Shown here: positions 3,452 to 61,185 of the stretch, in pieces
Position numbering within the stretch: the stretch's first letter is position 1
Layout of the letters: each line of letters starts with the position of its first letter
From: a virus
Reading direction: 5' to 3' (one strand)
DNA: 64,000 bases
IMG/VR virus record: IMGVR_UViG_3300037483_000793
Coordinates: 64,001 to 128,000 of that record
Notes under the pieces: model-generated
Told to the model about the DNA's origin: nothing
Seen by the model: the letters and a program-made list of their open reading frames with translations, nothing else
Databases searched by the model: none
Translations under genes and position numbers: made by a program

Positions 3452-3642
3452 AGTTCCCCAAGCGGCCCACCGGGCGCCTGCGGCGCGTTGGCTTACGTAC
3501 CAATGCCGGTTGGTGCGTGCCCGTCGACGTCGACGCCAAGGGCTGGGTCTGGACGTCGAGCCCGCGCGAGGTCATGCACCCGTACCGCGTCGAGGCTGCC
3601 CAACGGTGTCCGTTGCCACGTCGATCGCGCACGCGATCGTGA
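3448..3642 (+). CDS. Small basic protein with two Cys and Arg-rich tail
   Basis: ATGA-coupled; MKFPKRP...WC...RCPLPRRSRTRS. Confidence 0.5.
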   Translation: MKFPKRPTGRLRRVGLRTNAGWCVPVDVDAKGWVWTSSPREVMHPYRVEAAQRCPLPRRSRTRS

Positions 3643-3657
3643 TACGCTGAGGCCACC

Positions 3658-4098
3658 ATGGCGCGGTTTCGAGGCACAAAAATCACCGGCAACTGGTGGG
3701 ACAAGCACAAGGATCGCGGCGACGGCAAACGTTGCGAGATCACAGGCGGCGGCGGTGAGCACGGGACGCCCGGCGCGAAGATCGGTATCCACGACGTGAA
3801 GCAGTGTGCGGATACCTGCAAGAGCCACTTCTTCGAGCCCGCCACGATGCGGTTCTTCAGTTCGCGTGTCGCCGATACGGCGTACCAGGATGGCCGTGGC
3901 GGTGCGTTCTTCACGACCAGTGAAAAGGGCCCCAACGGTGTCCGTGCCTACTCGGTGCGGCACTACGACCCCGAGCGCTGCGGCGTCGACACCGTCGGCA
4001 AGTTCCAGAGCTACCACTCGATGGCGGCTGCACAGACGGCCGCGAAACGCGCCGCGAGCAAGGGCGCGCTTGGTCGTCGTCGTCGCAAGCGTCGCTAG
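3658..4098 (+). CDS. Basic protein with HFF..TMRFFSSRV phage motif and ALG-RRRRKRR tail (putative virion core protein)
   Basis: Motif recalled from phage proteins; 4 Cys; preceded by GATCGC-N4-GCGATC and TGA-TACGCT. Confidence 0.65.
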   Translation: MARFRGTKITGNWWDKHKDRGDGKRCEITGGGGEHGTPGAKIGIHDVKQCADTCKSHFFEPATMRFFSSRVADTAYQDGRGGAFFTTSEKGPNGVRAYSVRHYDPERCGVDTVGKFQSYHSMAAAQTAAKRAASKGALGRRRRKRR

Positions 4099-4368
4099 CT
4101 AGGCGCTCTCGGCGTTCTGCGCGCGCTGGATCTCGTCGAGCTTACGCATGATGATCTCGGCGAGCGGCTTGAGCATCTCGAAGAGGTCCGGGCCCGCGCT
4201 TTCGACCTTGCTCGACGACGGCGGTACGTGACTGGAGTCGTACTTGGTCGTGATCGTGATCTTGAGCGGGCCGTGGATCTCGAACGTCCGGGTCTCGGTC
4301 GATGTGTACGGACCGGGCTCGGGGGGCGTTTCGGCGGCAGCCGCGCCGGGCAGGAGATCGGGCATGCG
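4099..4368 (-). CDS. Hypothetical protein
   Basis: Fills gap between convergent genes; plausible composition. Confidence 0.45.
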   Translation of the reverse strand, partial: RMPDLLPGAAAAETPPEPGPYTSTETRTFEIHGPLKITITTKYDSSHVPPSSSKVESAGPDLFEMLKPLAEIIMRKLDEIQRAQNAESA

Positions 4369-4431
4369 TGCCAGGTAAGGCTGAGGCACGTACTGTCAAG
4401 GCCAGAACGTGCGCCGCCGCAGGCGGCCCGG

Positions 4432-4743
4432 TTACTTGTCGTACGCCGAACGGCGCATGCACGGACCCGAACCGAAGCTCGTGACCGCGTCGTGGATCTT
4501 CTGCCCAACGTCGATCATCGACTTCGGGACGCCGTGCTCACCTTGGGATGTCGACACCACATGTTCGTAAGCACGCGCGTAGTTCTGACTCGCGCGATTG
4601 AGCCGACCGTACACAGCGAGACAACTTTCGGTGTCCTTCGCGCTTGCGAGATCGAGCTTGGCGCGGCGCAGATAGTCGCGTGCGAGCTGCTCGTGGGTGC
4701 GGTCCGTGGAGCCGAGGGCTTTGCGTTTACGCTTCCGTGCCAT
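4432..4743 (-). CDS. Basic protein with MARKRKRKALG N-terminus, 2 Cys
   Basis: TATCAT -10 five nt before ATG; palindrome upstream. Confidence 0.65.
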   Translation of the reverse strand: MARKRKRKALGSTDRTHEQLARDYLRRAKLDLASAKDTESCLAVYGRLNRASQNYARAYEHVVSTSQGEHGVPKSMIDVGQKIHDAVTSFGSGPCMRRSAYDK

Positions 4744-4775
4744 GCCCGATGATAGCCGATCGCTCGCGCGATCCG

Positions 4776-5045
4776 CTACCGCCGCGGTGGCGTGACGTAC
4801 CGAGCGCAGGTCTGGAAGTCCTCAACGAAGCCTTCGCTGCCACTGGCTTTGAGATCGGGGATGAGGGTTCCGCGAAGGAAACGTACGAACTTCGCGTCGG
4901 TCTTGCCCGCTGAAATCAGCCGCGCACACTTCTGGAGATCCTGTGCGGTATGTGTACGCCCCGACGCTTTGGTATCGGGGATGATCGTGTGCCGCAGATA
5001 GTTCAGATACGCGCGCCGTTGCTTCGATAGTTTGCGTCTGGGCAT
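4776..5045 (-). CDS. Basic two-repeat protein (LRxTxIPDxKASG...CAR twice)
   Basis: Internal tandem duplication; TACCAT -10 seven nt before ATG. Confidence 0.7.
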   Translation of the reverse strand: MPRRKLSKQRRAYLNYLRHTIIPDTKASGRTHTAQDLQKCARLISAGKTDAKFVRFLRGTLIPDLKASGSEGFVEDFQTCARYVTPPRR

Positions 5046-5092
5046 GTCCATGATGGTACCGGATCGCGGACACGATCTGGTAGGCTCCCAGG

Positions 5093-5326
5093 ATGGCGAA
5101 GCGCAGACGCAAACGAGCACAGATGGCCGGTGACCGCCCACTTGTGGATGCGATTCGTGCCGGTTGTCGCGTGACGATCGTTGATCGATTCGGCAAGCAA
5201 CGCACTGGGCGCGCGGTCATGAAGGGCCCTGCAGGTTGGGTCTTGAACATGGGCGGTCGTTACGGCACGCCGGGCATCGCGAGCGATGACAACGTCACCA
5301 ACGTTCGCTGCACGAAGAGGAAATGA
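5093..5326 (+). CDS. Small basic protein, MAKRRRKR N-terminus, 2 Cys
   Basis: TGG-TAGGCT six nt before ATG. Confidence 0.65.
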   Translation: MAKRRRKRAQMAGDRPLVDAIRAGCRVTIVDRFGKQRTGRAVMKGPAGWVLNMGGRYGTPGIASDDNVTNVRCTKRK

Positions 5327-11747: not shown

Positions 11748-11779
11748 TCCCGGCCCGATCGCTGCCGGGATCACTTTTT
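11748..11779 (+). terminator. Possible rho-independent terminator
   Basis: TCCCGGC/GCCGGGA stem followed by TCACTTTTT. Confidence 0.45.
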
Positions 11780-11871: not shown

Positions 11872-13317
11872 ATGTCCAAGCTCGAACTCTCGATCAACGT
11901 GCAGTACCTGCCCTCCTGGGGCGCCTGGGAAGGCATCCGTGAGCTGATCCAGAACGGCAAGGACGCCGAGACCGAGTTTTCGGCTCCGCTCAAGGTCGAC
12001 TGGCGCGGCGGTCAGGCTATGGCGTGTTCGAGCTGCAAGCGCGTCTCGGCGAGCGCTGCTGCAAATTCGCTTTGTGACGTACCGCAGCCTGATGGGGATA
12101 ACTGCACTGGACATTTCCGTGCGAGCGGCACGCTGCGCATCGAGAACGAGGGTGCGGAGCTGACGCGCGAGGCGCTTCTGTTCGGCACGTCCAGCAAGGC
12201 CGACCGCAGCGACATGATCGGCAAGTTCGGCGAAGGCTTGAAGCTCGGGATCCTGGCGCTCGTGCGCGCCGGTCACCCGGTCAAGATCCGGACGGGCGCT
12301 GAAGTCTGGACGGCCGGTATCGCGCGCAGCGAGCGCTACGACGCGGACGTGCTGTGCTTCGACTGCGTCGGTGGCCGCGAGGCCAAGAAGCGCGTGCGCG
12401 TCGAGATCGAGAACGTGACCGCATTGGAGTGGGAACGGCTCAAGGAGCGGTTCCTGTTCCTGGTCAAGCGTACGGTCAAGGACGCCGAGTCGATGGTTGC
12501 GACGTCGCGCGGCGACCTTTTGCTCGGCGAGAAGTACGTCGGTCAGATCTTCGTCAAGGGCATCTACGTCTCGATGGACGCACGTCTGTCGGCGGGCTAC
12601 AACTTCCGCAACGTAGACCTCGATCGCGACCGCAAGATGGTCTCGTCGTGGGACCTGCAGTGGACCTGCAGCCAGATCTGGACCGAAGCAGCAGCGAGTC
12701 GCCCGGACCTGCTCGGTCAGCTGTTCAGTCACGCACTCGACGGCAAGGCTGACGTCGCAGGCTTGGAGCACAACGCGTCGTACGCACCCGACGCGGTCAA
12801 GGAGTGCATGGCGGCGACGTTCGCGGCGAAGTTCGGCGAGCGCGCGGTGCCGGTCGCGAACCTCGCTGAATCGGCCGAAGTCGAGCACCTGGGACGGCGC
12901 GGTGTCGTTGTCTCCAAGTCGCTCGGCGCGTTGCTCGCGACCACGCTCGGCACCAAGGAACAGATGCACGCCAAGCTCAAGAGCGAAGTCGTGCGCACGC
13001 TGTCGTGGGGCGACATGACCGACACGCAGAAGGCCGACCTGCTCGATGCAGTCAAGCTCGTCGCTGCGGTGCGCTCCGAGTGCACGCTCGATCTGATCGA
13101 CGTCGTCGAGTTCAACTCGGTGGGAACGCTCGGCCAGTTCAAGGACGGTCGCATCCTGCTCGCAGCGCGCATGCTCGACGACCGCGACGAGCTGCTCGCG
13201 ACGATCGTGCACGAGTTTTCGCATCGCTGTGGCGGCGACGGCGAGAAAGATCACGTGATGGCGATCGAGGACATGTGGCGCGACATCGTGAAGCACCTCC
13301 GCAACGGCGGCGTGTGA
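11872..13317 (+). CDS. GHKL (Hsp90/MORC-like) ATPase with C-terminal HExxH motif
   Basis: RELIQNGKDA (ExxxN), IENEG, IGKFGEGLKLG; C-terminal IVHEFSH. Confidence 0.85.
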   Translation: MSKLELSINVQYLPSWGAWEGIRELIQNGKDAETEFSAPLKVDWRGGQAMACSSCKRVSASAAANSLCDVPQPDGDNCTGHFRASGTLRIENEGAELTREALLFGTSSKADRSDMIGKFGEGLKLGILALVRAGHPVKIRTGAEVWTAGIARSERYDADVLCFDCVGGREAKKRVRVEIENVTALEWERLKERFLFLVKRTVKDAESMVATSRGDLLLGEKYVGQIFVKGIYVSMDARLSAGYNFRNVDLDRDRKMVSSWDLQWTCSQIWTEAAASRPDLLGQLFSHALDGKADVAGLEHNASYAPDAVKECMAATFAAKFGERAVPVANLAESAEVEHLGRRGVVVSKSLGALLATTLGTKEQMHAKLKSEVVRTLSWGDMTDTQKADLLDAVKLVAAVRSECTLDLIDVVEFNSVGTLGQFKDGRILLAARMLDDRDELLATIVHEFSHRCGGDGEKDHVMAIEDMWRDIVKHLRNGGV

Positions 13318-16300: not shown

Positions 16301-17848
16301 CTGGTACGGCCGCACGACACTCCTGCGCCACACCGAAAATCGTCCGCGCCGCGGACGCAAGGACGACACCGCCAATCCGCTCGACGGTGCCATCGCAGCG
16401 TTGCAGCCGTACGGTGACGTCGGGCGGGCCGCTGCCGCGTACTGGGACAAGAAGCGCACGCGAGGTGGCGACCGAGACGTAAGCCAACTTGCGGCCGCGG
16501 CGTGCCGCGTTCTGCACGCAGACGCGTACGGCTACTCGTCGTCGCTCCGCGACCGGCTGTTGGCTGAATTCACGCTGCTCGAAGGCGATCGACCGCCGAC
16601 ACCGCACCTACTGCGCGCGACCGACAATGAACTGCTGGCTGCGAGCGCGCTGCTTGCGGCACGTGAGAACAACGGAGCGCGATCGCTGCTCGCGCGGAAG
16701 GGTGCTGTCGGGGCATGATCACGAACGAACGAAAACTGGAATTGCGGAAAGCCGCTGCCGCACTGGCACGTGTCGCTGTCGAACGTGCAGCCGTTGTTAC
16801 GGTGCGCCCGGCAGCAGCTGCAACGCCCGAAGAGGATCGCTACGCACGCAAGTACCTGGCGTGCCTGGCCAAGAAGATCACCTACAGCGTGTTCATCGAC
16901 GAGGCCGACCTGTGAAACACCACGAGCGCACGAACATGACGCCGCTGGAGCTAGCAGTTTGGGCAGCAGCGTACGTCAACGGCGGCCCAACAATAGAACG
17001 CCAAAGCTATCCCGTCGAGCACGCAGACCAAACTGTCATGAAGCTGCGTGAGCGCCTCGAAGCGAAGCGGCAACAGGAGTTGCTGGACGCGGCGAAGGCA
17101 GCACACCGGCTTCAGATCGTGACGTCGAAGCGTTCCGGGGTCGGTGTACCGGGAACGATGCGCTGCTCGTGTGGCTACGAACCACCCATCACGGACGCGA
17201 CCGACGGCGAGGAGCTGATGGTGCTGCACATGGCGCACGTGCGGGCCGTCGCGCCGACGGAGCACTAACGTGACATCGCACCGCGTTCGACTAGATCGTC
17301 TTGGACTGGAAGTCGGTGATCACACGAGCGGCAGCACGATGCTCATCGCCAAGCACGACAACCGCGAGCTGAACTGGGGAAACGCAAGTCACCGCGGCGG
17401 GACATCCCAGATCGTCGTGCTCAAGTTCGGTGAGCTGGTTGAAATCACCGTCGACGAGGACATCGCGCATAGACCGCTGATGCAAGCACTTCACGACAAG
17501 TTCTACGGACGGCAACGCGACAAGAAGAAAGACGACGCGGTTGTCGAGCGTGTCGCAGACGCGCGGAAACGTCGTGAAGCGGCCGAGGCGGCGCTGCTCG
17601 CGAAGGACTACAAGCTCGGGGCCGAAATCGATTACACGCTCCTGTTCGATACGATCGCGGATGCGATCATCGAGCATTACGCCAAGTACATGGGCAGCGG
17701 CGGTCTTTTGGCGTTGCTCGGCAGCATTCAAAAGACCGTCGATAACGAAACCAAGTACGCATTCGATCGCGGACGTGAAGACGCGAAGGGCGAGCTACGC
17801 GGCTGGCTAGGCGCGGGATCGGGTTGTCGGTTTTTTCGTAACCCTTGA
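13317..17848 (+). other. Run of about 12 coupled hypothetical CDSs (13317-13781, 13771-14007, 14004-14492, 14489-14914, 14917-15099, 15102-15488, 15491-15748, 15751-16089, 16086-16718, 16715-16915, 16912-17268, 17270-17848)
   Basis: Contiguous same-strand ORFs with 1-11 nt overlaps or tiny gaps; 15102-15488 has an FPFDMLRY phage-like motif. Confidence 0.6.
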
Positions 17849-17874
17849 CAACTTACTCTTGCTTTGAATAGTCT
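17845..17874 (+). promoter_or_regulatory. Class 1 promoter cassette copy
   Basis: TTGACA then ACTTACTCTTGCTTTGAATAG; TAGTCT 18 nt after TTGACA. Confidence 0.65.
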
Positions 17875-23062: not shown

Positions 23063-24791
23063 AGAGCGGCACGGGCGCAAGATCGAGCCGTATGTTCCGT
23101 CGCCCGGTGCCCTGCCGTTGCACGAGGTCGTGCGTGAACTGTTCGAGAGCGCCCGCACGTTGGATCAGCTCGACGACGAAATCGGGCGGCTTTTGCGCGA
23201 GACGCAGGAACTGTTCTATACGCGTCGGCCGACAGGCTACCCTGTCGATGTTCCGTTCCCGCCGTGGGGCAAGCTCGCGTGGAGCGGTCGGCGCGGTCGG
23301 TGGCGTCTCGTTGTACTCGAAGACGAAGATTGCACGGACCTGTTCGACATGCCACGTGAGTGTCGCGCCGACGCGTGCCACTTGCTGGCCAAGCTCGCTG
23401 AAAGGATGAATCTGCTGTGAGGAGCTATGCGTCCCGTAACATCTTCCACGAGACCGCGATGGCGGTCTGGGCCGACGCTGTCGATTTGGTCGATCGCGTG
23501 AGCGATCGGCACCTCGATGAAGTGCGCTGCCACGAGCTGGCGCGTGCTGCATGGGCAGCACTCATGGATCTCAACCTGTACAAGCTCGTCAAGGCGAACG
23601 CGACCCTCGTACTCGTTGACGGTCAGCTCGGTGCGATCGAGCACAGCTGGCTCATGTACCGCTGGCATGATCCGATCGCGCCGAAGCGGTTTATCCTCGA
23701 CGTGTACTGTCCGGGACGGATACCGCAGGTGCAGTTGATCGACACGCACATCTTCATCGCGCGCAACTACGAGCAAGGTCCCGCGCGCACGGACATCTCG
23801 AACGAGATGACGTCGATGCTACTCGCGGAGATGCAACGTGGCCGATAACCTTCCAGCTGGCATGTTCGTCGTTACCGACAACGACATCTCGACGAAGACG
23901 CAGCTTGTCGCTGCGTTGCGGAAGTTTCTCGTGACAGGCAAGACGACGGTGCCGCCCGATAACGGCCGTGACTATCACGCGAGTCCTGGTGAGCTGGTGC
24001 TCGTACACGCGATCGCGGACTACTACGAGTACAACGATGCGATCCCGGACAAAGTCCTCGGCATCGGTGTTTTCCACGATCTGCGCAAGCATCTTGCTGA
24101 AGCGTTCCACGCGTTCCGTACCGAGCCCAAGTACGACGTCGTACGCGAGGCATACAAGCGCGAAACCGGCGAGAGCGACGAGATTCCAGACCTGTTCGAT
24201 GCACGCGGTCGCTGGACGCGACACCGTGTGGTCTACGATTTGTGTCGGCTCATGCCGCTGATCGCGGGTCGCATGGGTGGCGTATGGCTGGAGCGTGACC
24301 TCGAAGGTTACTTCGAATGTCAGGTGCACGTCGTCGAAGCAGCATGGCGTGAGTTCGTGCGGCGGTGCTACCGCGAGATCGCTCCTGTGATCAAAGCAAG
24401 CGGTTCGACTTCGCGCCGCGGGTTGTTCGGACGGACGTATCTGAACGCCGATGCGATGGCAGGCCGCGTCCAGTACACATTCGAGCGCATGACATCGGAG
24501 CCCGACCTAAAGATTCTCGATCAGTTGACGGCCCTGGCCGAGAATCGCGACGCCACCGTCGAGAACAAGTACGCCGCGATCGAGGCGTTGCTGATGACAC
24601 GCCGAGCACCGAAAGAGACGTGGGGGCGCTACGAGATCTCGTTTGCTGCTGACGAGAGCGACCTGCTCGGGATGCGCTCGGGCATGAACTTCCCGGGCTC
24701 AAGTATCACGGACTACAAGTCCTGCGTCGACATGATCGAAGACGTCGTGGCGCACTGGGATCTGTCGAAGCTCGTCGAAGGCCGCTATTGA
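23055..24791 (+). other. Three hypothetical CDSs (23055-23420, 23417-23848, 23838-24791)
   Basis: Coupled ORFs. Confidence 0.6.
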
Positions 24792-24797: not shown

Positions 24798-24830
24798 ACT
24801 CTTGACTTGTCGTAGATCGCGCGCTAGCGT
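24798..24830 (+). promoter_or_regulatory. Class 2 sigma70-like promoter CTC-TTGACT-TGTC (TTGACT-N17-TAGCGT)
   Basis: CTCTTGACTTGTC also at 33979 and 36731, each with a 17-nt spacer to a -10-like hexamer. Confidence 0.7.
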
Positions 24831-26649: not shown

Positions 26650-29600
26650 CGGGCGACCTGACCATCCTCGACAAGCTCGCAGCGATCATCGCGAATTCCG
26701 ATGCCAGCGACGAGAACAAGTATGCAGCAATCCAGGTAGTGATGCTGACACGGCGCCCGCCGTCGTCGATGCTGACACTCAGTGCTTACGATCAAGAACT
26801 CGCCAAGAGCGCAGGCAATCCACTGCCTGTTGACGCTCTCGCACTCGTATTCGGTGACGGCCGCGCGTGCGTATGCGTTCGCATCTACGGATCCAGCGCT
26901 TGGCGCGAAATTATGTCCGCGCCGGGCACCACTGAGGATGGTCTGGCGTGTGGCGTCAGTTTGCGTTCGCCGGATGCGTTCGCGTGTGCGCCGTTTGCGA
27001 TCGCTGGAGGGCCAGACGACTTACACGTACCGCTGGCAGTGGCACCGTGAGCGTCAACTGGTCCAAGAAAGAGTTCGCGTCGAAGCTGGTACAGCACGTT
27101 CGGTTTGCATCGGAGCTTCAAATCGGTGACATCGTGTTCGAGGACGGCAACCCGATCGGTGTCGCGAAGGTCGTCGTGGGCAGCCGCGTCCAGATCTACG
27201 ATTGCGACGACAACGGCTGGGAGTACGCGAGCGAAAAGTTGGTCTTCATCGTGCCGCGTGAAATGCTGAGGACTACATGAACACGACACCACAGTTCAGT
27301 TACAACCGTCTCCTGAGCGGCAAAGCGATCGTCACGTGCACGTGCGGTTGGCGTGACCCGCTTGGGCCAATGCCGGTTAGTCCGTTCGATCCTCGCGAAG
27401 CGCTTGCAGCTGCAGCTGCTGAGCACCTGAAGTGCGACCCGCAGCCGCAGCCTATCACCGAGCTGACGACGCTCGGTGAACTAGCTGTACAGCGCAAGAT
27501 GCTTGGCATCACGAGCATGACGCTGTTCATCGACCCAGACGGTCCCCGACGTACGGTCGTCATTTTCAACCACGAGCAAGGTGCGTTGACCGGCGACGGT
27601 GAAACCGAAGCAGCAGCAATCGAAGCTGCATTCTCGGCGCTGCGACGTGCAATGTTGCCGCCGGAGCTGCGTGCGCTGCTCAACGCCCCAGCGCCTGCGA
27701 AGCCGTGACCGCCCCGATCGTCACACCGTATCCGAACACCGAGTTCGAGAACCGTCTGCATCGCTACCAACGTCAGCGCGATCTCGCGCTACGTGGCTAC
27801 GAAAGGAATCGAATGTCGCTTGCACTGGCCGAAGCACTCCGCAACGAAATCCGTGCCGCCCTCGAAGCAGACGGCAAACCGTTCGACATCAACGTCGCGC
27901 GCCACGTCTACGACCTCGCGATCGCCGCCAAGGACATGTGCGCCGCAGCGACGGCAGCGACAGGCGGCGTCGGTGACACGGTCAAGTTGATCGCCGACAA
28001 CAACGGTCCCATCGAGTCGCTCGGCGAGCTGGAGCCCGATGCACCTGCGGTACAAGCGCAGGCGTCTGAGACGTTCGGTGCACGTATCCTGCGCGAGCTG
28101 ATGGCGACGCTCAAGCCGCCACAGTCACTGCCGGTCGAGGACCCGAAGGCGCTCGTGCATGCGCTCGCCGAGGCACGCCGCAACGGCATGACGGACGTTG
28201 CTACCGAGCTGGAGATCAAGCTGTTCGGTCGCGAGCTGCTCAGCAACAAGCCGATCGCGCACGCGATCGATGTTCCGCATGGCAGCTTCGATCACGGCTA
28301 CGCCGACGGCAAGGTCGATCGCCCGCCGGAGTACGGCGATGAGAACAGCGACTACCATCTCGGTTTCCTGCGCGGCACTGAAGCGCGGTTCCTCGAACCG
28401 GTCGGTGGTCGTGCAGGCGCTATCGAGAAGAAACTTGTCGACGACCCGCCGCTCTGCGCGGCGTGCATCAAAGACCCTGATCCGCGCGGCGGCTCAGCGT
28501 GCTTCCGGTGCCGTAAGATCCGGCGGGCCGCTGACCGCGGCTCGGCGCATCCGTTCGTCACGCGCGTTACCGACCGCTTTGCGGGTCCGCCGTCTGAGAC
28601 CTGCGAGGTATGTGGCACTGATCCACGCAACGTGATGCACGAGAACCACGAACAGGCACTGCGCGATGCGCACAGCTCGAACGGAGTCACGATCGTATGA
28701 AAACCTGGTTCATTCCGAGCTGGAACGGCGACTTTCGACTCGTCGCAGGCGACGACGCGAACACGTCGAAGTTGCTCGTCATGGAGCCGACACCGCACGA
28801 GAAGCAACTGCTCGCCGTGTTCATGAAGCAAGCGCGCAAGAAGGGTTGGACCGCCGAGCCGTTCGCGGCCGATGACATCATCGATACGCGGACGATCGAG
28901 TTGAAGACGCCGCTGACCAAGGCCGGTCCCGCGCTCGTCAAGATCGTCAAGCCCAAAGACCGCACGCTAACGGCGGTCAGCTTCAAGAACGGCAAGCTCG
29001 AAGTCGCCGAGGCTGACGGGCTCACAACGCTCGTCGCGAAGGCCGAGAACGACAAAGAGGCCAAGGCTGTCAGCGTGTCGCGTCCGACGCCGTGCTGTCC
29101 GCGCTGTGAGCCAGGTGCAATCGCGCCCGCGCGCGACGTGCTGCTGGCCTTCCTCAACGAGCAGGAACACGCTGACTGGGCCGAGCACCGCGCGATCAGC
29201 GTGACGGGTGGGATGTCAGGTCACCGCTATCTGCTCGCGCACCGCAACAGTCCGACCGCCGGACGGCTCGGTAAGATCTGCTACGACATGGACGAGCGGT
29301 TCGTGTTGCACTTCCACGCGACAGATCTGCCACCTGAGGAAGAAATCCTCGCCGCGAAGCTGATCCTCGAACACCGTGAGCCCTGGCTGCGCAACGAGGC
29401 TACGGTCGTGCAGCAACGCGCTGACGGTACGTGGACGGACCTCGGTTTCATGCGCTACAAGAACCCGTTCGGCGACATCCAAGACGGTCGTGTCGACGCA
29501 GCGATCACAGGCGCGATCGGCGGGTTTGTGGAAATGATGTTGGACGTGAAACCGTGAAGGACGCCAACGGCCTGGAGATCGGCCCCGAGAAGCCGTGCCT

Positions 29601-34397: not shown

Positions 34398-35351
34398 TGC
34401 GATGCTGGACCTCGACGACAACGCACTGATCGCTCTCGGGTTGCGCGAGCACGCACAGACCTGCGATCACATTGCACAGAAGTACAACTACGGTCACGTG
34501 AACCGTGCGGCATGGACTGCTCGCGCGGTACGGTGTCGCGAGATCGCGGTGCGCTACGAGACAGCGTCGAATGCGAGCAAGCCGAGGAACCTCGCATGAA
34601 GCCACAGTGTCCATCCGTCGTCGAGGGCACGTCGCGCTTCGTTCACGAGAACTGTCAAACCGCGGCGTGCCACTGGTGGACGAAGCGCTGTACGGCGGCT
34701 GATACGATTCCAGTCGCCGCGTTGATGCGTGGGCGCCTCCGCAAGAAGCGGTTGGCGTGCGCACTCGCAGAACGCTGTCGATGGATGCTGCAAGCGCCAG
34801 ATGGACTGTGCCCGCCCATGAAGATGGGCGAGATCTGCGAACACCAGGGTGGCACGTACAACACATCGCTGCTCGATGGCTACCCAATGTGAGAGAGCTG
34901 GGACCGGTGAAGCTCACTGAGAATCAGCGGCAGTGCCTAGAGTACGTCGCACAAGGTGACAACCCATGGTCGTTCCGTACGACGACGAAAGATTCACTCG
35001 CTCGGCACGGTTTGATCGAGCACACGTCGACAGGTTGGCGCATCACGCCAAGCGGCCGGGATTGGCTCGCGGCACACAAGGATGAATTGTGACCCGACTG
35101 CAGCACCTGCTCTACGTTCTCGGCGCGTGGCGTTTCAAAGGCTATCGCCGTTGGATCGGTGGCCTGTGGCGCGAGCGGTTCATCGAGGCGACGCCGCACT
35201 CGTCTGAGCGCGACTGCTGGCGATGGGAACCCTGCATGCGATTCGATTCCGGCGGTCCCGCGCGCACGTACGCGTTCGAGTCATGGCCGATCAGGCCGAC
35301 CGAGCTGCCGATCGCCCGCGCGATCGCAACTCGTGATAGGAAAAGCGACTG

Positions 35352-36699: not shown

Positions 36700-36775
36700 G
36701 ATCGCAAGAGCGATCGCACTTGACAACTAGCTCTTGACTTGTCGCAAAGCAAGAGCCATGCTCAATGTCAAGAGC
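36700..36775. promoter_or_regulatory. Operator/promoter cluster: GATCGC-N4-GCGATC, TTGACA, TTGACT-N17-CATGCT and four CTCTTG/CAAGAG boxes
   Basis: Read directly in the 36697-36833 intergenic gap. Confidence 0.65.
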
Positions 36776-41920: not shown

Positions 41921-42290
41921 CCGCGGTCTTATGTGGACCGGATCACCGATCGCACGTGCGATCGACATCGAAGTGCTAGAGCTGCTCGTCATCGAGATGC
42001 AGCTCAACAGCGCCGAGTCCGTGTATAGTCAAGAGCATCATGATCGCAGCGGTCGAACGAGCAGCAACAAAAACCAAACCGGATCGGTTGTGTGTCGTGC
42101 GTTGGACGGGTCGCGTACGATTGCACGTGGAAGTGTTGACGGTCTGCGGTGAGAGTATCGACGCCGCCGATGGTGTCGTGCAGGTTCCCGAGTTCATCTT
42201 GACCGGCCGCGCAGTGCCGAGCATCAGTAATCTCGGCGGTGAGGGCATCAAGGCTCTGAAAATCTGCGAAGACTGCAAGCGCGCGATCGG

Positions 42291-44608: not shown

Positions 44609-44673
44609 GCATTGATTCTACACCCAAACATTCACTTGATCGCGCGAGCGATCGCGTTGTAGCGTCCGTCGCG

Positions 44674-49380: not shown

Positions 49381-49860
49381 CTAGCACTCCGGCTTGGCGG
49401 CGCCGATAGCGAGGCCGCTGACAGCGCCCAGGACCGCGATACCGGACCCGATGAGCATCCAGTGCTTGTAGCGGGCGATGCTAGCGATGGGTTCCGTGAT
49501 GTCGGCCTGCGTGGTCGCGACGGCGACAGCTAGGCCGCCGCCAATCATGCTGCCGATCACGCCGCCGATCAGGGCGCCGAGCCCGCCACGAACGACGCGG
49601 GACGTGTTCGAGCAGGAAGAACTGCCCAGATTCTTGCGATTCCGCACACCATCGAAGTGAATCTTCGCGAGCTTCTTGTAGTAGTTTTTGTCTTCGCACA
49701 GGTGATCGAGCGCGATCTGTTGCGCGATCTTGTGATCGGTGGTGTGTTCCAGCTCGACCGCGGTACCTCGATGTAGCTGCGCAGCGTCGAAGTCCTTTGT
49801 GTGGCATCCGTGACGGCGGGCGTAACCGTTAGGTAGACGGACAGATCGTGCGGGCGTCAT
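49381..49860 (-). CDS. DUF5661-like domain fused to Gly-zipper membrane hairpin ending PEC
   Basis: GTAVELEHT.D...A.QIALDHL.E...YY.KL; two TM segments. Confidence 0.7.
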   Translation of the reverse strand: MTPARSVRLPNGYARRHGCHTKDFDAAQLHRGTAVELEHTTDHKIAQQIALDHLCEDKNYYKKLAKIHFDGVRNRKNLGSSSCSNTSRVVRGGLGALIGGVIGSMIGGGLAVAVATTQADITEPIASIARYKHWMLIGSGIAVLGAVSGLAIGAAKPEC

Positions 49861-49895
49861 GCGCTCGACGATACCATGATCGCGTGCGCGATCGA

Positions 49896-51755: not shown

Positions 51756-51795
51756 GTGGTTAGCCTACCACAGAAGCGATCCCAGCAGCGATCGA

Positions 51796-52503: not shown

Positions 52504-53082
52504 CTAACCCCGTGCCTTGCGACGGTAGACGACGTAGCCGACGCCGCCGACACCGAGCACGGCCACGACGCCGCCAAGGATCCACCACAGCGTCTTGGAC
52601 TTGACCTTCGGCAGCGCCGCGGCAGCAGGTGACATGCCCGGGATCTGCACAGGTCCGATCGTGGTCGTCTGGTGCACGACTGGCGGCGGCTGGTACGCGA
52701 CAGCAGTACCGGACGGCGACGGCCGCATGCCTCCAGCCTGTTGTACGACGGCGAGGTTCTGAAGCAGGTCGATCAGCATGCCCGCGTTTGCGGCGACGGC
52801 TTCTTTCGTCGATGGCGCCGTCGCGAGACCCAGCCTCTTGATCGCTTGCAGCGCCGTTACCGTAGCGGCGCCGATGAAGCCATCGACGGTGAGCGGCTTG
52901 AAGCCTGCAGCACCGGAGAAGACGTTCGTCTTCATCTGCAGCTGCTTGAACAACGCGTCGTTCGTCGGGCCGATCGCGTAGCAGATGGCGTTGTTGCAGT
53001 TGAAGTCCTTGCCCTGTGTCAGCCCGGCGGCGCTGAAGCCGTAGCCGAAGCCGTTACCGCCGCTGTGAGCCTGAATAAGCAT
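52504..53082 (-). CDS. Peptidoglycan-binding-domain protein (paralog of 51796-52500), C-terminal TM
   Basis: LTVDGFIGAATVTA; FNCNNAICYA; GGAG RBS before ATG 53082. Confidence 0.75.
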   Translation of the reverse strand: MLIQAHSGGNGFGYGFSAAGLTQGKDFNCNNAICYAIGPTNDALFKQLQMKTNVFSGAAGFKPLTVDGFIGAATVTALQAIKRLGLATAPSTKEAVAANAGMLIDLLQNLAVVQQAGGMRPSPSGTAVAYQPPPVVHQTTTIGPVQIPGMSPAAAALPKVKSKTLWWILGGVVAVLGVGGVGYVVYRRKARG

Positions 53083-53207
53083 GGATTCTCCTGTCCAAAC
53101 ATGTATCACGCGAGGTCCGGGACGGGCAACGATCGCGCACGCGATCGGCCTGCCAAACGCCTGTCAGGCCCTCCGAAACCTCGATCGCGTCGGCGATCCA
53201 GAGTAGG

Positions 53208-53540
53208 ATGAACGTCAACGTCGTGAACCCCGCCGCCAACGCCCGCACCATCGTCGTGCTGTTCACGATCCCCGGATGTGAAGCGTGCGCGGAGTACAAG
53301 CCGCGCTTTCAGCGCATCGCGCAGCAGTATCAAAACGTCGTGCCCATCTACATGCTCAACGCTAACGACACGCGACCGGACGTCGCGGACCTTGCAAGTC
53401 GTTTGCATGTTGCGAACGTACCTGCGACGTTCGTGTTGCGGCGACCGACCGGCGTGATCCGCGTCGAAGGTGCTATCCCTGATTCTCAAATCGCGTGGCT
53501 GCTTGGTGTCGCTGCGCGCGAAGTGTCGAACCCTTACTAG
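53208..53540 (+). CDS. Thioredoxin-fold protein without signal peptide
   Basis: FTIPGCEAC (CxxC) and VANVPATF cis-Pro loop. Confidence 0.85.
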   Translation: MNVNVVNPAANARTIVVLFTIPGCEACAEYKPRFQRIAQQYQNVVPIYMLNANDTRPDVADLASRLHVANVPATFVLRRPTGVIRVEGAIPDSQIAWLLGVAAREVSNPY

Positions 53541-54971: not shown

Positions 54972-55127
54972 TTAGCGCTTGACGAACGGGTTCGGACGCT
55001 GCACCGGACGCTGCACCGGACGCTGCACGGGCCGCGCGGGTTGCGCAGGCATCGTACGAACGCAGCAATCCTTGCCGGACTGCGGAGCTTGCCGAACAGG
55101 AGCTTTGGGGCTACGGCGACCGAACAT
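54972..55127 (-). CDS. Unannotated 51-aa basic protein MFGRRSPK...(PVQR)3...KR
   Basis: Below ORF-track cutoff; TGG-TAGGAT seven nt before ATG; contains the 12-bp repeat in frame. Confidence 0.6.
   Translation of the reverse strand: MFGRRSPKAPVRQAPQSGKDCCVRTMPAQPARPVQRPVQRPVQRPNPFVKR
54993..55028. repeat. 12-bp tandem repeat CGGACGCTGCAC x3 (encodes PVQR on minus strand)
   Basis: Read directly. Confidence 0.9.
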
Positions 55128-55249
55128 GGCGTTCATCCTACCAGAACATTCGGTCGATCGCGCAAGCGATCGGGTACGCCAACGTGGGCGATCCCTTCAG
55201 GGACTGTTTGACCCGTACTGGCGCTACCCGTACATTCGAGCCCAGCGCC

Positions 55250-56257
55250 ATGACTCAGATCAATCCCCGTTCGTTCGCGGACGCCAAACAGCTCGGCGAT
55301 TCCACCTATGAACTGATCCTGACGAACTGGGGCAACTTCGGCAGTGCGCGCGATCCGAACAACGCCTCCGAGCAGTATCCGCCGATCAAGAGCACTCCGG
55401 CGCCGACACCGCCGGGACCGCTCGCGTTGCCGAACGGCGCAATTCCGATCGTCGGCGAGTGGCTACTGCCGCCGCTTCCCAGCGTCTTCGCGATCGCGAT
55501 TGCACCGCGCAGCGATCTCGATCGTTGCATCTTGAACTTTCCAGCGCTGCCGCAATTTCCAGCGGTCGACACACCAGAGCCGTACGGGCCACGCGGGCTC
55601 ACCGGCAAGAGCATTACGATCGCTGAAGGTTTCGTAAACTACGGCGGCATCCTGGAGACCGAACAGTTTCTGAGCGTGAATGCGCCGTTGATCGGTCAAA
55701 TCAACGGGCCGATCCTCGTTCGTGCTCACACGTTCGCGTGGTTCAAGGACGGTTACACACCGCTCGATCCAGCTGGGACGCAGCGCTTCGGTACTGCCCT
55801 CAACGAACCGTTCAGTACGTCAGGTGTGATCAGCAATTTTCAGGTGCCCGAGCTGCGCCTCTTGCTGTACTTGACCAGCAAGAGCGGGCTGCCGCCACAG
55901 AAGCGTGCGCCACTCCATCGCACCTTCAACATAACGCCAATCTACCCGGCAGCGGGTATCGTCGGCCCGTGGGTCGTACCGATCATGGGACGGCGTCATG
56001 TCGTGATCTCGGCGCGTAGCACCAGCGCCGGACCCGTCACGGTGAACGCAGGCGGTGTCATGAATAGCGAGTTCACCAACTTCGGAAGCACGGCAGACTT
56101 CTCGATGGATGAAGTGCCGCTCGGAACGGTCACGATCGCTGCAAACGGGGGCGGGGTCATCACCATCGACAACCCGGGTTGTCCGTTCCTGACGGTGCAG
56201 GCATCCGGCGGCGGCCTCTTCGATTTCATGACCGTCAACGTCGACGCATTCGACTAA
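55250..56257 (+). CDS. Beta-rich putative virion structural protein (alternative start 55184)
   Basis: Alternating beta-strand pattern, Pro-rich, 2 Cys; palindrome upstream. Confidence 0.5.
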   Translation: MTQINPRSFADAKQLGDSTYELILTNWGNFGSARDPNNASEQYPPIKSTPAPTPPGPLALPNGAIPIVGEWLLPPLPSVFAIAIAPRSDLDRCILNFPALPQFPAVDTPEPYGPRGLTGKSITIAEGFVNYGGILETEQFLSVNAPLIGQINGPILVRAHTFAWFKDGYTPLDPAGTQRFGTALNEPFSTSGVISNFQVPELRLLLYLTSKSGLPPQKRAPLHRTFNITPIYPAAGIVGPWVVPIMGRRHVVISARSTSAGPVTVNAGGVMNSEFTNFGSTADFSMDEVPLGTVTIAANGGGVITIDNPGCPFLTVQASGGGLFDFMTVNVDAFD

Positions 56258-57125: not shown

Positions 57126-57136
57126 GGCGGTCTCCT

Positions 57137-57993: not shown

Positions 57994-58114
57994 GGGTGTT
58001 CTCCTCGAAGGTCGATCGCTGCTGCGACTGGTGTAGGGTCACCATCGCGCACGCACTGGATCTCCGCAAGGTTGTTCGCGTTTTTTCAGATACGAGCAGT
58101 GGTAAGTTCTACAA

Positions 58115-58519: not shown

Positions 58520-58546
58520 GGTTGCCGCTCGGGCAGTTCTGTTAGT

Positions 58547-59446
58547 ATGGTGGCTGCGATGGCGCGCGTGCACGGTCGACGGCCACCTCGGCTCGAAGCG
58601 AGAGACCGCGTATGGATTGCGCGGATGCGGCAGCTTGCAGCGGCCGAGGCACGCGCCAACGCCGAAGACGCCGAGTTCGAAGATCGTCCGGTTCGCGCGC
58701 TCGCGCAGCGTGAGCAAGAACTGGCTGCGCCCGCCGTACGCGAGATCATCCGCGAGCGTGCATCGTCATGGATGCCGCTCGCGATTGGCCTGGGCATCGT
58801 TGCCGTGATCGGTGTCGCGGGCGTGGTGATCTACTTGCTCGTGCGGCGCAAGGACGGCCAGACAGCGGTGCTCGGCGAAGTCGATCCGCGCTTCGTGCCG
58901 ACACACATGCAGCAGCAACAGCCGCAGGTCTACCTGATCAACGCAGGCGGCGGTCAAGCGCAGGTCACGCGTGCCGAGCCTGCAAATGCGTCGGCACCCG
59001 CAAACGACGGTGCGATGTTGTCATTGCTCGGCCGCATCGAGGCAGGCATTGGCTCGCTCGTGAATCACAACAAGGTGCCCTACAACCAATCGACGATGCG
59101 AACGTACCGACTGCCGTGGCTTGCCGATGCAGGCAACTCGGCAGTCCGGATCGCGACCGCTGGCAATTCGTCGATGGAAGCTGTCGTGCGCGTCGTTTCG
59201 CCACCGGGCGGTCTTGCAGCATTCTCGTTCTCGCCGAACGAGTTGAATCTCGCGCAGACCGTCGTCGCGCCCGGACTGTCGACGGTACCAGCTGGTGAAA
59301 CGCTCGTGGTGCCCTCGGGGCAGCAACAGCCAATCCATATGAACCCGAAGCAGGTGCTGTACGCCAAGGGCAACCTGTCGAACTCGAACCCGACGGGCGC
59401 CGTCGTCATCTCGATCAGCACCGTTGACAACTACGTCTCGCGATGA
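58547..59446 (+). CDS. Single-TM protein with C-terminal beta-sandwich (putative virion)
   Basis: TM LAIGLGIVAVIGVAGVVIYLLV-RRK; C-terminal strands ending VISISTVD. Confidence 0.6.
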   Translation: MVAAMARVHGRRPPRLEARDRVWIARMRQLAAAEARANAEDAEFEDRPVRALAQREQELAAPAVREIIRERASSWMPLAIGLGIVAVIGVAGVVIYLLVRRKDGQTAVLGEVDPRFVPTHMQQQQPQVYLINAGGGQAQVTRAEPANASAPANDGAMLSLLGRIEAGIGSLVNHNKVPYNQSTMRTYRLPWLADAGNSAVRIATAGNSSMEAVVRVVSPPGGLAAFSFSPNELNLAQTVVAPGLSTVPAGETLVVPSGQQQPIHMNPKQVLYAKGNLSNSNPTGAVVISISTVDNYVSR

Positions 59447-59475
59447 GCGGACGTAGGCACATGATAGGCTGAGCC

Positions 59476-59886
59476 ATGGACCCGGCTCGGGCGCTCGTCA
59501 CATCGCCCACGATCCGTAACGACACGCCCGCCGCGCCAGACGACTGGGCGATGGTCGTGTTGATCAAAGGCGGTGGTGGTATTCCCATCATCGTCACGGT
59601 CGTCGGGCCGACGACCGGTGTCACGACGACGATTCCTGTCTCGGTGGTTCCGGTCGTTTTTTTAGCCGCGAATCCAGCACGGCTCGGCGCGACGATCGTC
59701 AATGACTCACCGAATCGGTTCCTCTACGTCAAGTTGGGTGCGGGTGTCGGACTCGCAAGTTACTCGGTGCGGATCGGGCCGCACAGTTACTATGAGTTGC
59801 CGTTCCCGGCATATACAGGCGTGATCGAAGGCGTCTGGAACGCTGTGACACCAGGAACATTCGCGACCGTCACCGAGTTGACGTAG
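59476..59886 (+). CDS. Small jelly-roll-type virion protein (N..R.GA.I.ND...YTG...TELT family)
   Basis: Paralogous to 61186-61743 and 61764-62138. Confidence 0.6.
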   Translation: MDPARALVTSPTIRNDTPAAPDDWAMVVLIKGGGGIPIIVTVVGPTTGVTTTIPVSVVPVVFLAANPARLGATIVNDSPNRFLYVKLGAGVGLASYSVRIGPHSYYELPFPAYTGVIEGVWNAVTPGTFATVTELT

Positions 59887-59894
59887 GATGAGGT

Positions 59895-60188
59895 ATGCCC
59901 GTTCAAGCCCTCATCCGTAAGCTGACCCGTGCGCAGATCGACAAGGTCGTCGCTGACTCCAAAGCGAAGCTCACCGTCCAGGATCAGAGCGGCGCAACGC
60001 TCGTCATCGTGACCGCTACGATGGACGGCGAGGGTAAGGATCCCGTCGCCAACCTCGCGCTGCAGAAGATCTGCGACATGGATGCTGCCGTTGTGCAGAA
60101 GGAGCGCGAGGAAGAGGCGGCCAAGATTGCGGCCGAGAAGCGGGCCAAGCTCGCTGCAGAAGCGGCGAAGGCCGCCAACAACGGCTAG
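59895..60188 (+). CDS. Hypothetical protein with Ala/Glu/Lys-rich helical tail
   Basis: GAGGT RBS. Confidence 0.55.
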   Translation: MPVQALIRKLTRAQIDKVVADSKAKLTVQDQSGATLVIVTATMDGEGKDPVANLALQKICDMDAAVVQKEREEEAAKIAAEKRAKLAAEAAKAANNG

Positions 60189-61102
60189 GCAACACGCCGA
60201 CGCTTCGGCGGTCTGCGCGACTTGGTCTTTTTCGTTTGTACCTTCGCACGCGCTTTCGCTGCTGCCTCGACAAGACTCGGCGGGTTCTCAGGCAACGGTT
60301 CCGGTGGCGGCGCTGGGGGTGCCGTGTTGAACTTCGCGAGCGCGATGATCTGTTGCACCATGACGATCAGTGGCTTGGGTGGATTTTCGGCGTCAAACCA
60401 GCCGACGCTTTCCCACATCGCGTCGATCGGTTGTGGTTCGCCGCCGACGTACTCGCAGGACATCACCAGCGTCAGGAAGTGCTGACCCGCTTTCTCGACA
60501 AACGTCGAGACGTATGGCGCGAACTTCGAGACCGCTATCCGACCGACGTCGAGACCGGTTGTGACCTTCACGGCACGCTGTACCGCGCTCTCGACGGACT
60601 CGCCGACTTCGAGTGCACCTTCGGGCAGCACATAGACGCCGCTCTTCTTGAGCTTGCCCATGAGGACGTTGCCCTCGTGGATCATGAGCGCTGTGACAGC
60701 GACGCGAACGACGGGCCTGTCGGTGGCGTCGATCTCGCCGATTTTGAAATCGGTCGATACCGGACACGCAGGATCGACTGGCCAGCGCCCCAATGCCCAC
60801 TTCTTGGCGTCGTTGCGATCGAAGAACGTCGCTAGCGGTTCCTGTGAATCGGGCGGCGCGAAGACCGCGGACACACGGCGACCGCCGATTGCCAGCTCGG
60901 GCGGTTTCGAGCCGATTGTCAAGTAGACTGGCTTGCCGTCTTTGCCCTGGTCAAGTACGAGCAGTGCCTCGTCACCCAGCTCGGCGCGCCGCGTCGAATA
61001 CGCCTCGGCCAACATCCGAACTGCCAGTGGCGGCAGCTTTTCAGCAGCGATTCGTTCAGGTGAATCGGCAGCGTGCGGACTGATGCGGATGATCGTCTTC
61101 AC
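60185..61102 (-). CDS. Protein with C-terminal degenerate Nudix domain
   Basis: VAVTALMIHEGNVLM...LPEGALEVGESVESAVQRAVKVTTGL. Confidence 0.7.
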   Translation of the reverse strand: MKTIIRISPHAADSPERIAAEKLPPLAVRMLAEAYSTRRAELGDEALLVLDQGKDGKPVYLTIGSKPPELAIGGRRVSAVFAPPDSQEPLATFFDRNDAKKWALGRWPVDPACPVSTDFKIGEIDATDRPVVRVAVTALMIHEGNVLMGKLKKSGVYVLPEGALEVGESVESAVQRAVKVTTGLDVGRIAVSKFAPYVSTFVEKAGQHFLTLVMSCEYVGGEPQPIDAMWESVGWFDAENPPKPLIVMVQQIIALAKFNTAPPAPPPEPLPENPPSLVEAAAKARAKVQTKKTKSRRPPKRRRVA

Positions 61103-61185
61103 GGACGGACCGTAACACGACACGAAGATGGCCCTGATCGGGTAGACTAGAGGTCGATCGCTGCTGCGATCGAGGAGCACCCAGG

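Follow-up and report, generated by a model that had tools for sequence, protein, structure and literature searches.

A conserved GATC palindrome marks a putative genome-wide operator network in an uncultured group of very large phages

Introduction

The logic of one regulator acting on many dispersed sites is already known from phages and plasmids. Here we describe a palindrome, GATCGC-N4-GCGATC, found in a 64-kb stretch of viral DNA (the window, bases 64001-128000 of the 195,792-bp virus record IMGVR_UViG_3300037483_000793, our G000; 62% G+C, the record being judged ~90% complete). Its copy number, position and conservation lead us to read it as the mark of a genuine operator network that spans the genome, is conserved among related, uncultured phages of very large size and has a promoter grammar of its own. 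What would be new is a network of symmetric operators locked to promoters. Coordinates below are those of the window unless marked as genome coordinates, which refer to G000.

The stoperators of Cluster A mycobacteriophages (L5, Bxb1) are asymmetric sites, oriented with transcription and mostly away from promoters, at which a monomeric repressor blocks elongation (PMC6550527, PMC9283540). The palindrome resembles them in that dozens of near-identical short sites occupy short gaps genome-wide, some inside promoters, pointing to a single regulator, and in that the consensus is clade-specific and kept among relatives (here G001, G003, G004, G005 and G008). Unlike stoperators, it is a perfect inverted repeat that is free of orientation (the spacer reads GCGA in 10 sites and TCGC in 9 relative to the promoter), and it lies at divergent promoter regions (15 of 23 divergent gaps vs 24 of 300 co-directional gaps), with ~40% of copies abutting a -10 element; the genome is moreover four times larger than those of Cluster A phages and belongs to an unrelated virus group. 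Two features that define stoperators, asymmetry with orientation and independence of promoters, are absent from the palindrome.

A second comparison is with KorA and KorB of the IncP-1 plasmid RK2, which, as here, use palindromic operators across a whole mobile genome, at varied promoter positions (overlapping, upstream or distant), to co-ordinate control of most operons (PMC3199767, PMC4889941). RK2 is however a plasmid with four interacting repressors, whereas this phage carries ~50 sites. The KorB operators of RK2 number about 12 and KorB is a ParB-type protein; no ParB appeared among the Pfam families listed for 289 proteins of G000 (nine families of the second batch lay outside that listing), and no search was aimed at ParB.

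Some phage promoters also offer a parallel: T4 middle promoters carry a MotA box at -30, and middle/late promoters of the Thermus phage P23-45 have an extended -10. The promoters described here similarly combine the lack of a -35, a strong TGn-extended -10 and a phage-specific element near -30, but the T4 and P23-45 elements are non-palindromic and act via sigma appropriation or blocked -35 recognition. MerR-type operators, dyads set in an over-long (19-20 bp) spacer from -35 to -10, have a similar shape (7-4-7) and position; here, no conserved -35 lies upstream, and G000 holds small HTH_17 proteins only, with no match to MerR_1. Finally, our leading candidate binder has a helix-turn-helix (HTH) of the GerE family, as in the LuxR/NarL/GerE regulators (NarL C-terminal domain, PDB 1JE8; GerE, PDB 1FSE), but it lacks a receiver or autoinducer domain and has instead a Cys/His N-terminus, modeled at low confidence; LuxR-type sites usually lie at -42.5, whereas the palindrome, to which binding by this candidate is predicted, lies at -33 to -16. 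A full-text literature search for the half-site in the context of a phage palindrome returned nothing relevant.

Results

The palindrome is abundant, intergenic and distributed end to end

Genes were called by a codon-usage caller trained on G000 (347 genes; 91.4% coding, 8.6% non-coding). In the 64-kb window, the perfect palindrome occurs 14 times, compared to 0.05 +/- 0.22 in dinucleotide-preserving shuffles, and the whole of G000 contains 44 perfect copies (225 per Mb) distributed end to end, beyond any single module. Twenty-eight of these are fully intergenic and 33 are at least half intergenic, where a first-order Markov model of the intergenic DNA of G000 expects 0.003; the genome-wide intergenic enrichment that the earlier note on the window had asked for is thus large. 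Eleven perfect copies lie within genes, vs 2.66 +/- 1.30 (maximum 6) in 300 codon-preserving shuffles, and these encode Ile-Ala-x-Ala-Ile in seven cases and Asp-Arg-x-x-Asp-Arg in three. The earlier note had suspected such Ile-Ala-x-Ala-Ile coincidences and a non-zero coding background, rightly so, yet the coding excess over the shuffle persists; some of the "coding" palindromes directly precede the start of the next gene or a probably mis-called start (35310; genome 135132 and 163247).

All 12 perfect copies listed by that note, from 3623 to 61156, were recovered, as were its imperfect ones (one mismatch at 5062, 11757 and 51778, two at 58014 and 41884). Its list was incomplete, overlooking the in-gene copies at 17653 and 23492, and the site at 3623, which it had placed at the 3' end of a gene, is intergenic in the gene call of G000. 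Single-mismatch copies and two recurring arm variants, GGGATC and GCGACT, bring the 33 perfect intergenic palindromes of G000 to ~50. The flanks extend the palindrome to an 18-bp 7-4-7 inverted repeat, cGATCGC-N4-GCGATCg, the centre of which favours K-C-R-C (GCGA/TCGC, GCAC, GCGC). As noted earlier, GATC is present twice in every perfect copy; the two lie 12 bp from each other, and most recurrent arm variants retain GATC (GGGATC, ACGATC, GTGATC).

The type of gap matters: sites occur in 15 of the 23 divergent gaps, in 24 of the 300 co-directional gaps and in a single convergent gap out of 23. This distribution, in which the divergent preference proposed earlier is evident, points to a promoter element, not a terminator. 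The sole convergent-gap copy (genome 133228-133243) is perfect, spans both stop codons of the convergent gene pair (TGATCGC..GCGATCA) and is absent from G001.

The palindrome keeps a fixed distance to -10 elements

Spacing statistics were drawn from 121 intergenic sites pooled from G000 and two relatives. A TAnnnT hexamer begins 3-5 nt from the end of the palindrome in 45 of the 121 sites (3.7 expected), with a mode of 4 nt, and a second mode at 9-10 nt accounts for 13 sites (2.4 expected). At a spacing of 4 nt, TG is found two bases 5' of the -10 hexamer in 17 of 21 sites, giving the consensus cGATCGCgCncGCGATCGTGgTAgg.T (GCGATCGTGgTAgg.T), and no -35 or other conserved element occurs further upstream. 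Altogether, ~40% of the intergenic copies abut an extended -10 (TGnTAnnnT) located 3-5 nt downstream.

Three layouts can be distinguished. In the commonest (class A), the palindrome covers about -33 to -16 and is followed by the extended -10 and then the start codon, with no conserved -35 (3623, 4758, 5062 in both directions, 44638, 49878, 51778 and 58014). The extended -10 feature itself (TGn directly 5' of TAnnnT, without a -35) is present at class A sites, and promoter activity is predicted from it. An ATG or GTG lies 6-7 nt 3' of the -10 hexamer in 25 of 49 class A cases, and because the start codon follows so closely, many class A genes would have leaderless mRNAs. In class B, a canonical TTGACA-17-TAGCTT promoter is followed ~10 nt after its -10 by the palindrome (about +5 to +20) and then by a ribosome-binding site (RBS), as at genome 140560, 143238 and 150093 (where a GCGACT-variant copy stands in tandem) and at window 61156. 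In class C, the palindrome lies a few bases 5' of a -35, including the repeated box CTCTTGACTTGTC (window 36700; genome 42874 and 54813), and this box marks a second promoter class that is mostly without the palindrome.

Strong intergenic placement, preference for divergent gaps and fixed distance to -10 elements all argue for a protein-type operator tied to promoters, as the earlier note had envisaged, and we hold with high confidence that the palindrome is a protein operator at promoters.

Another repeated box, (a)CTCTTGAC(T/A)(T/A)G(T/C)C, is usually accompanied by TAGCGT or TAGGGT at -10 distance. It heads long one-strand blocks of small genes, where the palindrome is mostly absent, and is probably a separate promoter class, early and host-type. 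Its occurrences are:

Window 17845-17874, 24799-24830, 33979-33991 and 36731-36743; genome 42893, 47824, 54852, 153834, 160156, 165453 and 186383: (a)CTCTTGAC(T/A)(T/A)G(T/C)C box

A related box, aacttactct.g.cttgtttgaatag, is found at window 11780 and genome 33950.

Sites cover virion genes and extend beyond them

In genome coordinates, gaps of the replication module (1-22 kb) contain no site (0 of 7) and those of the one-strand small-gene block at 69.5-99 kb a single one (1 of 13). Elsewhere, sites occur in 4 of 8 gaps at 22-31.5 kb, 7 of 17 at 54.5-69.5 kb, 8 of 15 at 99-128 kb, 10 of 18 at 128-155 kb and 7 of 25 at 155-196 kb. The most conserved gene, a putative capsid gene (genome 135255-136004, 90-93% identity across all relatives), belongs to an operon that begins at a class A promoter (genome 138122). 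Other genes 3' of sites encode a thioredoxin, DUF7447 and DUF5661 proteins and a LuxR-type protein, and sites also lie next to a region with Prim-Pol and NUDIX genes. The late regulon of the structural module proposed in the earlier note is therefore partly right: the capsid operon and most gaps at 99-155 kb are covered, but sites at 22-31, 54-69 and 155-196 kb stand beside non-structural genes, and we conclude that the predicted regulon covers virion genes but extends beyond them. A PHROGs search with 10 large proteins returned no functional names, and 12 kb of the window, compared with GenBank phages by megablast, found no match.

The palindrome is conserved in relatives and lost from one of them

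Three IMG/VR relatives (G001-G003) were found via a 793-aa protein flanked by two sites, and a scan of IMG/VR for the palindrome with a TGnTA tail gave the clade members G004-G008, mixed with chance matches. The 18-mer alone was rejected as a route to relatives in IMG/VR, as it yielded single chance matches among the matches listed. As the records of G001, G002 and G004 are incomplete, little weight can be given to a gene missing from them. The palindrome is frequent in G001 (20 copies in 91 kb) and G003 (36 in 221 kb), mostly intergenic in both, and copies are likewise numerous in G004 (11 in 65 kb), G005 (10 in 79 kb) and G008 (7 in 36 kb). At orthologous genes of G001 and G003, the palindrome and the -10 hold their position relative to G000 while the flanks diverge, so that the motif is indeed conserved in related genomes, the lack of which would have told against the earlier proposal.

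The variant GATCGC-N4-GCGACT, which looks weaker, occupies the same two sites in relatives, both located where the capsid operon and a small HTH_17 gene diverge. At the HTH_17 promoter it is found in all three genomes (G000, G001 and G003); at the capsid-operon promoter it is found in G001 and G003, and G000 has a perfect copy. The same region also contains TGATCA-N5-TGATCA (genome 138190-138215), kept in four of four genomes including G002, a motif at which another regulator could act on the switch of the capsid operon.

G002 (IMGVR_UViG_3300036768_000843) contains one palindrome in 95 kb. It has most core genes in common with G000, at 55-92% identity and, for most of them, closer than those of G003; given this order of relatedness, the simplest history would be that the palindrome was lost in G002. 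Orthologous promoters in G002 retain TGnTAnnnT, the leaderless start or RBS, and TTGACA-17-TAGCTT, and the palindrome there is mutated, or excised by a 15-nt deletion leaving one half-site. These promoters, kept without the palindrome, suggest that they work without it and thus that it is a modulating, most likely negative, element and not an indispensable substitute for a -35.

No other k-mer was enriched in the intergenic DNA of G002. One candidate substitute palindrome, CCCGATC-N7-GATCGGG (18 copies in G002), was rejected, being the repeat unit of a CRISPR-like array with which the contig ends and not a promoter motif. This array (93.5-95.0 kb) has at least 18 copies of a ~36-nt repeat (GTCGTTACGCTTGCCCGATCAGCCGACGATCGGGAC) and 23-37-nt spacers, some of them near-duplicates.

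Sites in the window

The individual sites of the window are as follows.

3623..3638, plus strand: perfect palindrome, class A; TGaTACGCT with -10 at 3643-3648, ATG at 3658, gene 3658-4098 (DUF7447)
4758..4773, minus strand: perfect palindrome, class A; -10 TATCAT at 4749-4754, leaderless ATG at 4741-4743, gene 4432-4743
5062..5077, both strands: one-mismatch palindrome, bidirectional; on the plus side TAGGCT at 5081-5086, ATG at 5093 and open reading frame (ORF) 5093-5326; on the minus side TACCAT at 5053-5058, ATG at 5049-5051 and gene 4776-5051
11757..11772, plus strand: one-mismatch copy with the recurrent GGGATC arm, in the gap 5' of gene 11872-13317, then the second of the repeated promoter-like boxes, aacttactctcgacttgtttgaatag
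17653..17668: perfect copy in gene 17339-17848, encoding Ile-Ala-Asp-Ala-Ile, without promoter context; probably coding background
23492..23507: perfect copy in gene 23417-23848, encoding Asp-Arg-Val-Ser-Asp-Arg, without promoter context
28253..28268: perfect copy in gene 27705-28700, encoding Ile-Ala-His-Ala-Ile; probably coding background, as suspected earlier
35310..35325, plus strand: perfect palindrome within the final codons of ORF 35089-35352, 26 nt 5' of the LuxR/GerE gene start; TGaTAGGAA 8 nt downstream, its hexamer TAGGAA (35337-35342) 11 nt downstream
36700..36715, plus strand: perfect palindrome 3 nt past a stop codon and 4 nt 5' of tandem -35 boxes (cTTGACA, gCTCTTGACTTGTC); precedes gene 36834-37190 and the tyrosine recombinase gene 37187-38089
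41948..41963: perfect copy that begins 17 nt into ORF 41931-42152; this ORF has weak support, and the copy may be intergenic
44638..44653: perfect palindrome between divergent genes; TAGCGT (44660-44665) and ATG at 44674 on the plus side, TAGAAT (44615-44620) and ATG at 44606-44608 (gene 43997-44608) on the minus side
49878..49893, minus strand: perfect palindrome, class A; aTGgTATCGT with -10 at 49868-49873, leaderless ATG at 49858-49860, gene 49381-49860 (DUF5661)
51778..51793, minus strand: one-mismatch copy with the GGGATC arm; TGgTAGGCT, -10 hexamer 10 nt off (51762-51767)
53131-53146 and 53183-53198: two perfect palindromes in one divergent gap, between gene 52504-53082 (minus strand) and the thioredoxin gene 53208-53540 (plus strand)
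55156..55171: perfect palindrome in a divergent gap, 36 nt 5' of the canonical promoter TTGACC-17-TACATT (55208-55236) of gene 55250-56257; minus side TAGGAT at 55135-55140, then ATG at 55125-55127
58014..58029, plus strand: recurrent variant GATCGC-N4-GCGACT, with TAGGGT 4 nt on (58034-58039)
61156..61171, plus strand: perfect palindrome, class B, in the 5' leader between a -10-like TAGACT (61143-61148) and the RBS GAGGAG (61172) of gene 61186-61743

The palindrome at 49878 is retained at the G003 ortholog; the one at 61156 is also retained there and is absent at the G002 ortholog. The promoter grammar (a -10, then an ATG 6-7 nt on) implies leaderless starts that depart from longest-ORF or RBS-based calls at 5093-5326, 51753-51755 and 55125-55127, and the ATG at 51753-51755 is likely the true start of the minus-strand gene at the 51778 site.

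Candidate binders

DNA-binding proteins were sought by Pfam scans of 289 proteins (in two batches), 30 proteins scanned singly and four family searches. The recognisable ones in G000 are one GerE/LuxR-type protein, two small HTH_17 proteins, a RelB-like protein and two tyrosine recombinases; searches of G000 for HTH_3 and MerR_1 gave no match. The main entries are:

35352-35756, plus strand: LuxR/GerE-type protein, 134 aa, with a C-terminal GerE/NarL-type HTH at residues 72-123
Genome 4241-4447, minus strand: HTH_17 #1, 68 aa, found in G000, G001, G003, G004 and the contig of G006; G002 lacks it in the syntenic gap of 400 bp
Genome 138257-138487 (starting near 138257; HTH_17 match at 138333-138467), plus strand: HTH_17 #2, missed by the gene caller, diverging from the capsid operon
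Window 37187-38089 and genome 63278-64219: two tyrosine recombinases (phage integrase family), both conserved in G002 and G003

Of the three proteins that the earlier note had named as possible regulators, the LuxR candidate at 35352 is a genuine HTH protein of the GerE family (Pfam GerE PF00196, E=8e-18, 64 bits vs a cut-off of 23.5), and Pfam gave no support to the "RHH" (ribbon-helix-helix; 49896) and "Zn-finger" (36834) assignments. The best PDB match of the LuxR-type protein is the NarL C-terminal domain, and its structure model is confident only for residues 75-129, which form four helices (predicted local distance difference test, pLDDT, 84-97). The N-terminal ~70 residues contain 10 invariant Cys/His and match no Pfam family. 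Its homologs comprise 38 proteins at 57-77% identity, all metagenomic, the next best being ordinary response regulators that match in the HTH alone. The gene is located in an early-looking small-gene block and is found in G000 and G003, both complete palindrome-bearing genomes; it is absent from G002 and from a related region of a Gemmatimonadota chromosome described below. Metagenome contigs of at least 5 kb that encode a homolog all carry a perfect palindrome, except L239, which has the recurrent arm variant only.

LuxR/NarL-type proteins typically bind 16-20-bp inverted repeats as dimers, activating or repressing according to site position, and for this reason we rank the LuxR-type protein first as the predicted binder, at a probability that falls a little short of even. 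HTH_17 #2 is a poorer candidate because it is retained in G002. Among 20 small proteins kept in G003 but absent from G002, Pfam identified only one extra DNA-binding protein, an HTH_17. That the binder, whichever it is, is encoded by the phage we consider probable.

The recombinase gene at 37187-38089 adjoins the LuxR-type gene, with the 36700 palindrome and the tandem -35 boxes upstream. In the chromosome of a Gemmatimonadota metagenome-assembled genome (MAG; CP070815.1, 3.674-3.719 Mb), ~45 kb contain homologs of capsid-operon and virion-region genes at 31-71% identity and are free of the palindrome. This region may be an integrated smaller relative, a hint on host range and lysogeny.

Discussion

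Our best overall explanation is that the palindrome is the operator of one phage-made, dimeric, sequence-specific regulator built into phage promoters, a reading that we put slightly above an even chance. A dimer bound at the palindromes would overlap the RNA polymerase footprint, and for this reason repression seems the most likely outcome; such a regulator would repress or gate some two-thirds of all divergent promoter regions, among them the one that drives the capsid operon. Repression could operate during lysogeny or a carrier state, or serve to time events in lytic growth. The two recombinases and the ~45-kb related region in the Gemmatimonadota chromosome make it plausible that the phage is temperate or persists in a carrier state. 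The binder would most likely be the LuxR/GerE-type protein of the early block (35352-35756), the Cys/His-rich N-terminal part of which could serve as a sensor.

As to the sign of regulation, we lean modestly towards a net repressive effect. The palindromes lie across the predicted core promoter or within the predicted leader; with their extended -10, the promoters belong to a type that is self-sufficient; the spacings at the two modes differ by half a helical turn; and the G002 promoters evidently do without the palindrome.

The opposite sign is the best of the alternatives, possible though rather unlikely in our judgment: the palindrome would be the site of a phage activator that replaces the -35, an early regulator (e.g. 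the LuxR-type protein) recruiting or stabilising host RNA polymerase on the extended -10 promoters. It would turn on a middle/late regulon including the capsid operon, and copies 3' of canonical promoters would shut these off, making a dual temporal switch. Lambda CII and T4 MotA act in this way, at the -35/-30 position of promoters without a -35, and GerE can do either, depending on where its site lies. The tight spacing to the -10 (3-5 nt, mode 4) and the lack of a conserved -35 in class A fit an activator, as do the location of the LuxR gene in an early-looking block and the coverage of the virion region and capsid-operon promoter but not of the replication module or of the small-gene blocks with strong host-type "CTCTTGAC" promoters. 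However, G002 has the same promoters with neither the palindrome nor the candidate regulators, and near-consensus TGnTAnnnT promoters usually need no activator. The second spacing, ~5 nt off and thus half a helical turn away, is a poor fit to face-of-helix activation, a centre at about -24.5 is familiar for MerR-family activators only, which need a -35 and an over-long spacer that are absent here, and copies at +5 to +20 cannot activate.

Several points weigh against a repressor of the LuxR type. Class A promoters drive the capsid operon, which a purely lytic cycle would expect to be activated, and the tight 3-5 nt spacing resembles the stereospecific RNA polymerase contact typical of activators. 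A lysogenic repressor would moreover leave most "CTCTTGAC" promoters of the small-gene blocks uncontrolled, as these are mostly palindrome-free. As to the protein, the data do not separate the LuxR-type candidate from HTH_17 #1, which shares its presence/absence pattern, both being absent from G002. Co-variation of the LuxR recognition helix (HTVHFH, FTVNYH) with the palindrome was looked for, and no altered palindrome was found in the 6-11 kb of flanking DNA available; no perfect palindrome occurs in the 240 bp 5' of the G003 ortholog of the LuxR-type gene. The starts of transcription, the binding of a regulator and its repressive or activating effect are all predictions from the DNA sequence.

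Methylation could overlay either a repressor or an activator: the two GATCs would be the functional core, and Dam-type methylation, or hemimethylation after replication, would set the state of promoter or regulator. As the primary explanation we find this improbable. Methylation-controlled precedents are the pap and agn43 switches and replication-coupled timing, and the phage encodes a suitable enzyme:

Genome 20565-21467: D12-class N6-adenine methylase, 300 aa, in the replication module and in all relatives examined, including G002

The best solved relatives of this Dam-type enzyme (DpnM, E. coli Dam and T4 Dam) all act on GATC, making methylation of the operator plausible, and GATC is present twice in each perfect copy and kept in most recurrent arm variants. 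On the other hand, GATC is neither enriched nor avoided in G000 (2064 sites, observed/expected 1.04; 10.4 per kb coding and 12.1 per kb non-coding) and so marks nothing specific, non-GATC positions (the inner GC and the flanking c/g) are equally conserved, and the conserved GCGACT variant lacks one GATC. G002, finally, has kept the methylase and lost the palindromes, suggesting that the main role of the enzyme is elsewhere, e.g. in restriction protection.

GATC is locally dense in the gap between the HTH_17 #1 operon and the replication genes (genome 4448-4869), which has lower G+C, 7 GATCs in ~130 nt and a canonical TTGACA-17-TAGCGT promoter; the corresponding gap of G002 (85700-85900) has about a dozen GATCs in ~150 nt. 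This gap may be a replication origin or control region.

That a host transcription factor reads the palindrome, joining phage promoters to a host regulon, is less probable still. It would account for the phage offering candidate binders only, with just three or four recognisable DNA-binding proteins in 196 kb. Candidate host genomes, three MAGs (Gemmatimonadota, Polyangiales and Actinomycetes) that carry relatives of the putative capsid gene, however contain palindromes at background density (~3 per Mb), unclustered and with coding-like spacers, although the true host may be another; and G002 lost its palindromes together with two phage DNA-binding genes.

Least probable of all, and in our view very improbable, is a nucleic-acid hairpin (a terminator, a cruciform in the DNA, or an element for the processing or stability of RNA): the 6-8 bp G+C-rich stem with its 4-nt loop (-9 to -13 kcal/mol), the many copies starting 1-3 nt past a stop codon, the transcribed class B copies and the copy across both stops of a convergent pair (genome 133228) would suit it, but no T-run follows the palindromes, none is among the terminator-like calls, convergent gaps are nearly devoid of sites (1/23 vs 15/23 divergent), a class A promoter would not transcribe its own palindrome, which precedes the predicted start, of eight folded examples three do not exceed shuffles in stability (z -0.7 to -0.9, against -2.0 to -4.5 for the remaining five), and the loop has no strand preference relative to the promoter, with balanced counts of GCGA (10) and TCGC (9), so that a GNRA loop or a strand-biased spacer was rejected as a sign of RNA function.

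For a virus group without a cultured member, the motif provides the first concrete map of its transcription programme, comprising ~50 promoter-linked operators, a defined promoter grammar, a palindrome-free second class (CTCTTGACTTGTC) and two or three named candidate regulators. It is usable now for the correction of gene starts (e.g. 5093, 51755 and 55127, predicted leaderless starts that were mis-called), for operon limits and for spotting relatives in metagenomes. G002 is in effect a natural "knock-out", its sites lost and its promoters kept, an unusually clean comparative control for the gain or loss of a global operator network.

The boldest reading, which we regard as a long shot, is that a giant, apparently tailless phage holds most of its promoters under one network, with a LuxR-type protein bearing a Cys/His (metal or redox) sensor sitting on ~50 GATC palindromes in place of the -35 and released by a redox or metal signal, by titration by replicating genomes and/or by methylation by the phage Dam. 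If true, the phage would possess a master switch, coupled to replication or stress, of a type undescribed for any phage and, as the loss in G002 suggests, removable as a unit.

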